Of a stretch of DNA of 64,000 nt, positions 60,078 to 61,151 are shown piece after piece; positions within the stretch are counted from its first letter, which is position 1, and each line of letters opens with the position of its first letter. This DNA comes from Pseudovirgaria hyperparasitica (Eukaryota): the NCBI GenBank assembly GCA_010093815.1, contig ML996566.1; one strand, 5' to 3'. Made by a program: the position numbers and the translations under genes. Below the pieces are notes generated by a model. That model was not told where the DNA came from. It did not search any database and was given only the letters and a program-made list of their open reading frames with translations.

Positions 60078-60130
60078 ATTGGACGATCTAAGCGGGATTA
60101 GTAGCTCTTCACGGGGAGAGGGAAACAGTT

Positions 60131-60271
60131 CATGATCCTTTCGCTCGCATTATCGAGACGCAAGTTCGGCCGTATAATCTCAGAACGAGTCCTCGGCAGT
60201 ATCGACCATCTCTGTCTGCAGATGCAGCAGGTGGATAGCAGTCTCTGCCAGAACTCGAACACCGGCTCATG
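60131..60271 (-). ncRNA. TPP (thiamine pyrophosphate) riboswitch aptamer in the 5' intron of THI4
   Basis: Minus strand reads CAUGA-GCCGGUGUU-[P3 CGAGUUCUGGCAG...CUGCCGAGGACUCG]-UUCUGAGAUUAUACGGC-CGAACUUG-CGU-CUCG-AUAAUG-CGAG-CGAAAGGA-UCAUG. P1 (CAUGA/UCAUG), the CUGAGA pyrimidine sensor, the P5/L5 AUAAUG loop and AGCGAAAG are present. It lies just 5' of a branch site (CTAAT) and TAG acceptor at 60088. Confidence 0.95.
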
Positions 60272-61151
60272 CTAAGATTACCTGGTTTACCTTGGTCGTC
60301 TCTGTCTAATCTGGCGTATAAAGGCATCATGTCAAAGTCTGTTCCCGTAGGGTACAGTACCGTGGATGAATGTGCTGTGTGTGTTAGTTATCTAGTCGGC
60401 TGTTTATGATTTCCATCAATACGTTACTGGTGCTTGTAAACACTTGAAATGTAGATACTGGAGTATGCGAGATTGAAGAAGAAGTTAAAAGGTGAAAACC
60501 ACAATGCGTGAAGTAATTGATCTTTATAAAGGTGCGGGGTATTGGGACTAAGAGCTCCCTCCATGAAAATTATTAACGCGATGCTTAGGCCTAAGTGGGG
60601 GTTCCAGGGATGTGAATATCGGGGAGTAGCTCCTTTGTCGAATGATCGAATGATTGAATATTTTCCAGTCAGGTGTCTTGGTCATGTACGGTAGACGTTG
60701 CAGTAATGCACTTGCTGTTAGTATCTTTGGTGAGTCTGGCCGAGCTGCAACCTATAGATATCAGAGGACTAGACTAGACTATAGACTTGAAATCTGTCAC
60801 AAAAATTTTAGGATCGAAAAAGGAGAGTAGGGAATAGATCAAATCTAGTCAGCGTGTTGAACTTTGAATTCGGATGCAGCTCTACTTCTTATGATGCATT
60901 GGCCAGCGCTGCGATAAGAGTGAAGGGGTCGCGTCAAAACACATTACTAGGTTCACACTAATGTTGTAGTAAGCGGAGACGGAAAATCATAGGACCGCAC
61001 CCGACCATCTCACGGTGCGGATCTCGCTTACCTTAGCGCACACTTGATGTATGCGAAAAACTCAACACCTTTCCACACGACTTCAACGACTCCTAACGAC
61101 AACAACCATCCGGAATTCAGCACCGAATCGTCTTGACTAACATCCGTCAAG

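Follow-up and report, generated by a model that had tools for sequence, protein, structure and literature searches.

A probable Type I TPP riboswitch on THI4 of Pseudovirgaria hyperparasitica with a rare, compensated J4/5-P5 allele

Main finding and locus

Judged from its sequence and from related loci, the leader of the thiazole synthase gene THI4 of Pseudovirgaria hyperparasitica is likely to contain a functional fungal Type I TPP OFF switch that carries a rare, compensated J4/5-P5 allele. The locus lies in a stretch of 64 000 nucleotides of contig ML996566.1 (GenBank assembly GCA_010093815.1), referred to here as the window; THI4 and all of its leader features are on the minus strand. The THI4 coding region occupies 59046–60077 (ATG at 60077, stop at 59046, 326 amino acids) and has one 51-nt intron (59740–59690). 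Its product is 100% identical over the query to a P. hyperparasitica protein record. The fungus is described as a mycoparasite, the host structure being rust sori (PMC3317363, in the accessible part). Thiamine pyrophosphokinase and TMP synthase domains are encoded in the genome and, since the enzymes for TMP and TPP synthesis are present, a different ligand is not called for by the pathway. Rust fungi show strong thiamine gene expression in haustoria, which could alter what a mycoparasite meets.

Two neighbouring genes were named from their open reading frames: a ribosomal protein S6-like gene on the plus strand (61137–62000), with splice joints seen at introns 61614–61688 and in the region 61851–61900, and a PRPP synthetase-like gene on the minus strand (62806–63807). 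RNA contigs extend to 60902–60920, far above a TATA-like box at 60528 and toward the divergent ribosomal-protein gene; these contigs tell neither strand nor start. Minus-strand ATGs occur at 60899, 60685 and 60564 in the region 60423–60920. A 23-nt motif starting AACTCGTTAATTTAAT was found by pattern search at no fewer than (at least) 14 places in the genome and is probably part of a mobile-element family.

The aptamer and its variant arm

The TPP aptamer was located at 60131–60272 by Rfam alignment and folding. It consists of P1 (60271–60267 paired with 60135–60131), P2, a long P3, J3/2 (UGAGAU), P4 and P5. The P1–P5 architecture and the UGAGA pyrimidine pocket of J3/2 are present, and all 14 constrained pairs (P1, P2, P4 and P5) are standard. 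The search with Rfam RF00059 that had been proposed in a preliminary description of this DNA returned a match at 60206–60119 with 25.9 bits, under the gathering score of 54.3. The related fungal THI4 loci also score below 54.3 (16 of 16; 26.5–46.7 bits), and the cut-off is not diagnostic for this group. RF00059 is reported to truncate fungal aptamers with a long P3 (PMC11683625, available text).

Both the sequence and the Rfam alignment give the 3′ half as CUUG-CGU-CUCG-AUAAUG-CGAG-CG, in agreement with the preliminary description. The variant J4/5 (60158–60161) has G(60)-C-G-U in place of G-A-U. P5 (60144–60157) is CUCG/CGAG with the loop AUAAUG, its change being fully compensated, and J5/4 (60141–60143; C77-G78-A) is intact, with C60143 and G60142 able to pair with G60159 and C60160. 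The conserved pocket residues are given as G60, C77, G78, U59 and A80 (PMC3764141, accessible part). In the window the residues on the pyrophosphate side are all kept, U59, G60, C77, G78 and A80 corresponding to U60162, G60161, C60143, G60142 and A60140, and the U59–A80 pair is retained. The consensus A61 and the two-nucleotide A-U after G60 are replaced by C-G-U. RNA contigs from two runs carry the same letters as the window throughout the aptamer, so the J4/5-P5 allele is not an assembly error.

The base inserted into J4/5 may be either 60160 or 60159, as two registers fit the sequence. In the first, 10 bp are formed with the splice-site mask described below, AC is bulged from the mask (−11.1 kcal/mol), A61 became C and the G is an insertion like that in NMT1. 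In the second, 7 bp are formed, C60160 is bulged from the aptamer (−6.5 kcal/mol), G60159 is the equivalent of A61 (an A-U to G-C swap) and the C is inserted.

Splicing of the leader

RNA evidence was taken from the spliced contigs of two public runs of one sample, for which the growth medium is not on record; contig depths were not used for isoform ranking. The joint 60087^60291 is present in one contig (run X2), and the proximal donor S2 (GTAAAC, 60285–60290) is therefore used in vivo. This joint and the identity of THI4 place the riboswitch in a 5′ UTR intron of a thiamine gene, as in Type I. The intron ends (60088–60101) with a branch site CTAAT (60101–60097) and the acceptor TAG (60090–60088), at which the joint lies. 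A form with the riboswitch intron retained is present in both runs.

A second joint, 60374^60423, was observed in both runs and assigns 60422 to an intron of its own, 48 nt long, in the upstream 5′ UTR (60375–60422; donor GTATTG at 60422, branch CTAAC at 60387, acceptor CAG at 60375), removal of which takes out an ATG at 60416. The preliminary description had put forward 60427 and 60422 as alternative donors of the riboswitch intron that would remove the upstream ATGs (uATGs); the splicing of 60422 to 60375 in both runs rules them out as ON donors. The same joint and the layout of relatives delimit a 14-nt micro-exon (60361–60374), which precedes the distal donor S1 (GTACTG, 60355–60360). From its position 70 nt above S2 and from the sequences of relatives, 60360 is probably the productive donor and is predicted to act in the ON state. 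In an isoform sketch, splicing from 60360 to 60088 would leave zero uATGs below 60500. By its position and predicted outcome, 60360 is a candidate for the distal donor of Type I; joints for 60360, 60281 and 60427 are absent from the contigs of this one sample, and contigs cannot show the absence of a joint.

Tandem uATGs are found at 60325–60330, within the anti-aptamer. Splicing at S2 gives a uORF of 23/22 codons that is out of frame and overlaps the THI4 start, so that use of the proximal donor leaves a uORF, as in Type I; intron retention likewise leaves uORFs. The sketch bears out the earlier claim that the uATGs at 60330 and 60327 stay out of frame and run over the THI4 ATG (60077) with splicing at either 60290 or 60281, and the sites that had been named (GTAAAC at 60290, GTAATC at 60281 and a TAG acceptor ending at 60088) are all present in the sequence.

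The candidate donor S3 (GTAATC, 60272–60281) lies within a 10-nt stretch complementary to J3/2: 60281–60272 and 60183–60174 can form 10 bp (−10.2, p 0.003). This pairing was rejected as a conserved element, being found in only one of 29 relatives. In that relative (L263), similar tandem donors spaced by 9 nt accompany the pairing, and the 28 others are without them.

The mask helix and the extended anti-aptamer

The exon side of S2 carries a proximal mask, GAGACG(AC)CAAG (60291–60302), where relatives have ATCAAG. Folding of 60430–60085 gave the predicted 10-bp helix between 60164–60155 and 60302–60291, with AC bulged, at pair probabilities of 0.86–1.0. A P4/P5 complement thus lies beside the proximal donor, as in Type I. 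This helix forms the innermost part of an extended anti-aptamer (60291–60331), with 29 predicted pairs to 60164–60131 (−27.0 kcal/mol), and the same extended pairing was found in 25 relatives (mean −24.8 kcal/mol). The proposal that the helix masks the donor stands for the exon flank, as it adjoins 60290 and covers exon positions −1 to −4, but not for the GU itself, which is unpaired (0.96/0.90). Together with the GU, positions +3 to +5 of this donor are unpaired in the ligand-free fold, and this was counted against the reading as a working switch.

The ligand-free fold is ahead of the aptamer fold by 13–16 kcal/mol in the window and by a median of 11 kcal/mol (range 6–22, n = 29) in relatives. 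Because it is energetically ahead in all of them, switching is probably kinetic or aided by splicing factors in the window and the relatives alike. The switch could instead have decayed or become locked, with binding too weak against a strengthened anti-aptamer, a constitutive splice choice and THI4 regulated otherwise. The large advantage of the ligand-free fold would fit such a state, as would the Rfam score, which is the lowest of those compared (25.9 against 26.5–46.7 in the 16 relatives), and the in silico closure of the pocket described below. However, the energy gap falls inside the range of the relatives, S2 is used in vivo despite its masking in the ligand-free fold, and all binding-core motifs have been kept along with P1, P2, P4 and a P5 that is doubly changed yet paired, an outcome that drift would not favour. 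We consider decay to be quite improbable.

Comparison with related THI4 loci

Of 61 THI4 loci, 12 were dropped for want of a usable upstream part, and the remaining 49 were reduced to 38 distinct loci in 16 sequence clusters. ATCAAG, the complement of CUUGAU, stands right before a GT donor in 25 of the 38 (11 of the 16 clusters). The other 13, which were counted against the best explanation, have TCTAG (four), ATCAG (two) or other letters (seven). ACCAAG directly before GT is found in the window alone among 84 loci. In 29 loci with ATCAAG or TCTAG, a GTA was found 55–85 nt above S2 in 25 and a micro-exon of 6–30 nt (branch and YAG ahead of the matching donor) in 23. The window matches this layout of micro-exon, candidate S1, uATGs, anti-aptamer, CAAG before GT, and aptamer, and by sequence layout its RNA groups with the fungal Type I TPP riboswitches. 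Some THI4 relatives (L249, L287, L300, L256, L269 and L289) have a TCAAG complement 8–30 nt above the donor and not abutting it.

Reciprocal swaps were calculated between 14-nt masks and CUUG-J4/5-P5 arms, using the window and the 25 relatives with ATCAAG before GT. The window's own pair gave −11.1 kcal/mol, a value to which its higher G+C contributes in part, whereas the window mask with the relatives' arms gave a mean of −4.3 kcal/mol. The relatives' masks gave a mean of −4.0 kcal/mol with the window arm and −7.9 kcal/mol with their own, and 23 of the 25 pair more stably with their own arm than with that of the window. Among the relatives themselves there is no advantage of the own arm (−7.9 against −8.0 on each other's arms) because the arms barely differ at the pairing positions. 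Opposite A61, the mask has T in all 25 of these relatives, as against C in the window. That aptamer and mask co-evolved, as first suggested from the window, is supported by the relatives and by the swap test for a single lineage; among the scanned aptamers no second C-G-U allele was found.

A chance complement, arising without co-evolution, would be easiest to accept for the short helix in its one lineage: the 14-nt mask against the arm is only moderately unusual, an equally good pairing having come up 38 times in 1000 shuffles and 38 times in 3000 pieces drawn at random from the window. For the 45-nt mask against the aptamer 3′ half, the 1000 shuffles gave no equal and the 3000 random pieces gave 10. 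Chance is further opposed by the position of the site, exactly where relatives keep ATCAAG before GT, by the T-to-C difference opposite A61 and by the failure of the reciprocal swaps. It is very hard to credit as the origin of the complement.

Rarity of the allele

In a single metagenome scan, 83 aptamers of the fungal type were found, of which 61 lie beside THI4. All pattern scans required fixed flanking motifs, and divergent aptamers were therefore missed. The exact C-G-U junction was found in none of the 83 fungal-type matches and in none of 257 among the prokaryotic matches listed. In the 61 THI4-linked matches J4/5 is AT (59), ATC (1) or ATT (1), so that A61 is kept in 61 of 61 and the junction has three nucleotides in two. 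Their P5 is CAGG/CCUG in 32, CUGG/CCAG in 23, CAAG/CUUG in three and CUAG/CUAG in three, with CUCG/CGAG in 0 of 61; CUGG/CCAG, taken in the preliminary description as the typical fungal P5, is outnumbered by CAGG/CCUG. The loop AUAAUG occurs in six of the 61.

The one-nucleotide-longer J4/5 is present in the window as claimed, but it is not a unique feature, three-nucleotide junctions also being natural in prokaryotes, in other fungal THI4 loci and in the NMT1 aptamer of this genome. At least 120 such stretches were found in GTDB; among the 121 matches listed, A-G-U accounts for 48, A-U-U for 33 and A-A-U for 33, A61 is kept in 119, and 19 of 20 tested exceed the Rfam cut-off. Non-A61 junctions likewise number at least 120 in GTDB; among the matches listed, C is found in 93 of 120 and P5 CUCG/CGAG in one. 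C plus two bases at J4/5 was found 17 times in the complete GTDB scan, and C-G in none of these. In terms of sequence, the parts of the allele are ordinary natural variants and the combination is rare. Neither a C-G-U junction nor co-evolution of the mask in fungal THI4 turned up in a literature search that had most subscription papers outside its reach.

Further observations were made in the same scans. The fungal pattern gave two chance matches in viral contigs, and three prokaryote-labelled records in GTDB. TPP aptamers with C61 are common in prokaryotes (GTDB), mostly with A at position 79, and the relaxed variants referred to in the accessible text of PMC5473149 may include them.

Two further TPP aptamers were found in the genome, in genes named from their open reading frames. 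One, with a canonical junction, is intronic in a transporter-like gene (G000:C9; L001, 1501–1630) and is the third TPP aptamer of the genome; the loop AUAAUG is common to all three. The other, in an NMT1-like gene (G000:C11; L002, 1361–1595), has the three-nucleotide junction A-G-U, with which a stretch near 1382–1390 (GACCTCAAG) pairs, the inserted G included. This complement is ∼100 nt above a candidate donor GTGAGA (1491), which is sited in a long hairpin.

Ligand pocket and selectivity

In silico, C60160 and G60159 are able to pair with G78 and C77 in the isolated arm (p 0.97–0.98), a closure of the pocket worth about 3 kcal/mol by nearest-neighbour folding. C-G closure was found in none of 29 fungal arms and in none of 257 among the prokaryotic arms listed, which restates the absence of the C-G junction. 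In the available text of a preprint on E. coli thiM (bioRxiv 10.1101/2025.01.21.634073), A61 binds a Mg2+ and C77, A61U changes the K_D from 0.74 nM to 2200 nM, and A61G has lower affinity with switching retained. TPP is probably still the ligand. Its affinity is likely to be weaker, because position 61 is changed in the window and C77-G78 can be drawn into pairs with the new C-G, and the sensitivity or selectivity of the switch may differ from the canonical one.

The change could also go as far as relaxed specificity, in which, on this model, the pyrophosphate pocket would be closed, the RNA would read mainly the pyrimidine end, and thiamine, TMP and TPP would be sensed alike and more weakly, with the splicing logic unchanged. 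The C60160–G60142 and G60159–C60143 pairs, absent from the compared fungal and the listed prokaryotic arms, point in this direction, as does the loss of affinity in position 61 mutants (bioRxiv 10.1101/2025.01.21.634073). Many bacterial P4-P5 variants are likewise said, in the accessible part of PMC5473149, to hardly discriminate thiamin, TMP and TPP, but these are given there without sequences, so that their likeness to the window allele is one of description, and eukaryotic TPP aptamers are said there to conform to the consensus. Moreover, G60, C77 and G78 are conserved, though a closed helix would let them drift; the closure is worth only about 3 kcal/mol in a calculation that ignores Mg2+ and ligand; and C61 by itself occurs often in prokaryotes (93 of 120 non-A61 junctions among the matches listed). 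We regard relaxed specificity as unlikely, although it deserves some weight. If true, such a switch would sense the total thiamine pool and would have had its mask adapted accordingly, and ligand selectivity would have changed naturally in a eukaryote. To our knowledge, TPP riboswitches are the only class known to act in eukaryotes.

Discussion

In the preferred reading, that of a Type I OFF switch, exon 60331–60291 would zip up the aptamer 3′ half (the 5′ strand of P4, J4/5, P5, P4′ and P1′) when ligand is absent, and the resulting anti-aptamer would cover the exon side of donor 60290. At low TPP, splicing would then take place at 60360, the uATGs would be removed and THI4 protein would be made. 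With TPP bound, the aptamer would fold and either 60290 would be freed and used or the intron would be retained; the use of 60290 is observed, and its dependence on ligand is predicted. The uATGs would then be left, and an out-of-frame uORF over the THI4 start would block translation. The change of J4/5 from A-U to C-G-U appears to have been matched by a change of the mask from ATCAAG to GAGACGACCAAG, by which the pairing would be kept and strengthened.

The closest known systems are NMT1 and THI4 of Neurospora crassa, the `Type I' of Mukherjee et al. (2018; PMC5882874), which like the window have, in the available text, an aptamer in a 5′ UTR intron and two donors, the distal one of the window being predicted, with uORFs between them. 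Masking has already been described for both genes, as a pairing of P4/P5 nucleotides with sequence adjacent to the proximal donor (PMC3597705; PMC5997356; accessible parts). The window differs in its J4/5 (G-C-G-U), its P5 (CUCG/CGAG) and the corresponding change of the mask, in a pairing that runs the full length of the 3′ half and masks the exon flank rather than the GU, and in a third candidate donor that pairs with J3/2. The THI4 riboswitches of filamentous ascomycetes (the 61 metagenome loci) share with it the micro-exon, a candidate S1 about 60–70 nt above S2, the uATGs, the extended anti-aptamer, CAAG before GT, the long P3 and a sub-threshold Rfam score; unlike it, they have A61 in 61 of 61, no CUCG/CGAG and an ATCAAG mask in 25 of 38. 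The bacterial P4-P5 variants (McCown et al., 2017, PMC5473149, mentioned there as work in preparation) resemble the window in being altered on the pyrophosphate side while the rest of the aptamer is normal; they are bacterial and are compared here by description. The engineered E. coli thiM mutants A61G and A61U (bioRxiv 10.1101/2025.01.21.634073) also have position 61 substituted, but in a synthetic ribozyme context and with no inserted base, and A61C is not among the mutants described in the available text.

The mechanism of the THI4 switch has not been fully studied, according to the accessible part of PMC11900860. It has been assumed from NMT1 more than demonstrated. In relatives the short helix is kept as ATCAAG before GT; at the present locus nature has supplied a compensatory mutant of it, which offers comparative evidence of selection on the mask helix, and the differences between its arm and mask and those of relatives provide a ready four-way swap system. 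Should binding prove less selective, the switch would parallel, in a eukaryote, variants that have to date been mentioned for bacteria alone; should binding prove normal, the RNA would be a typical THI4 riboswitch whose allele is unusual.
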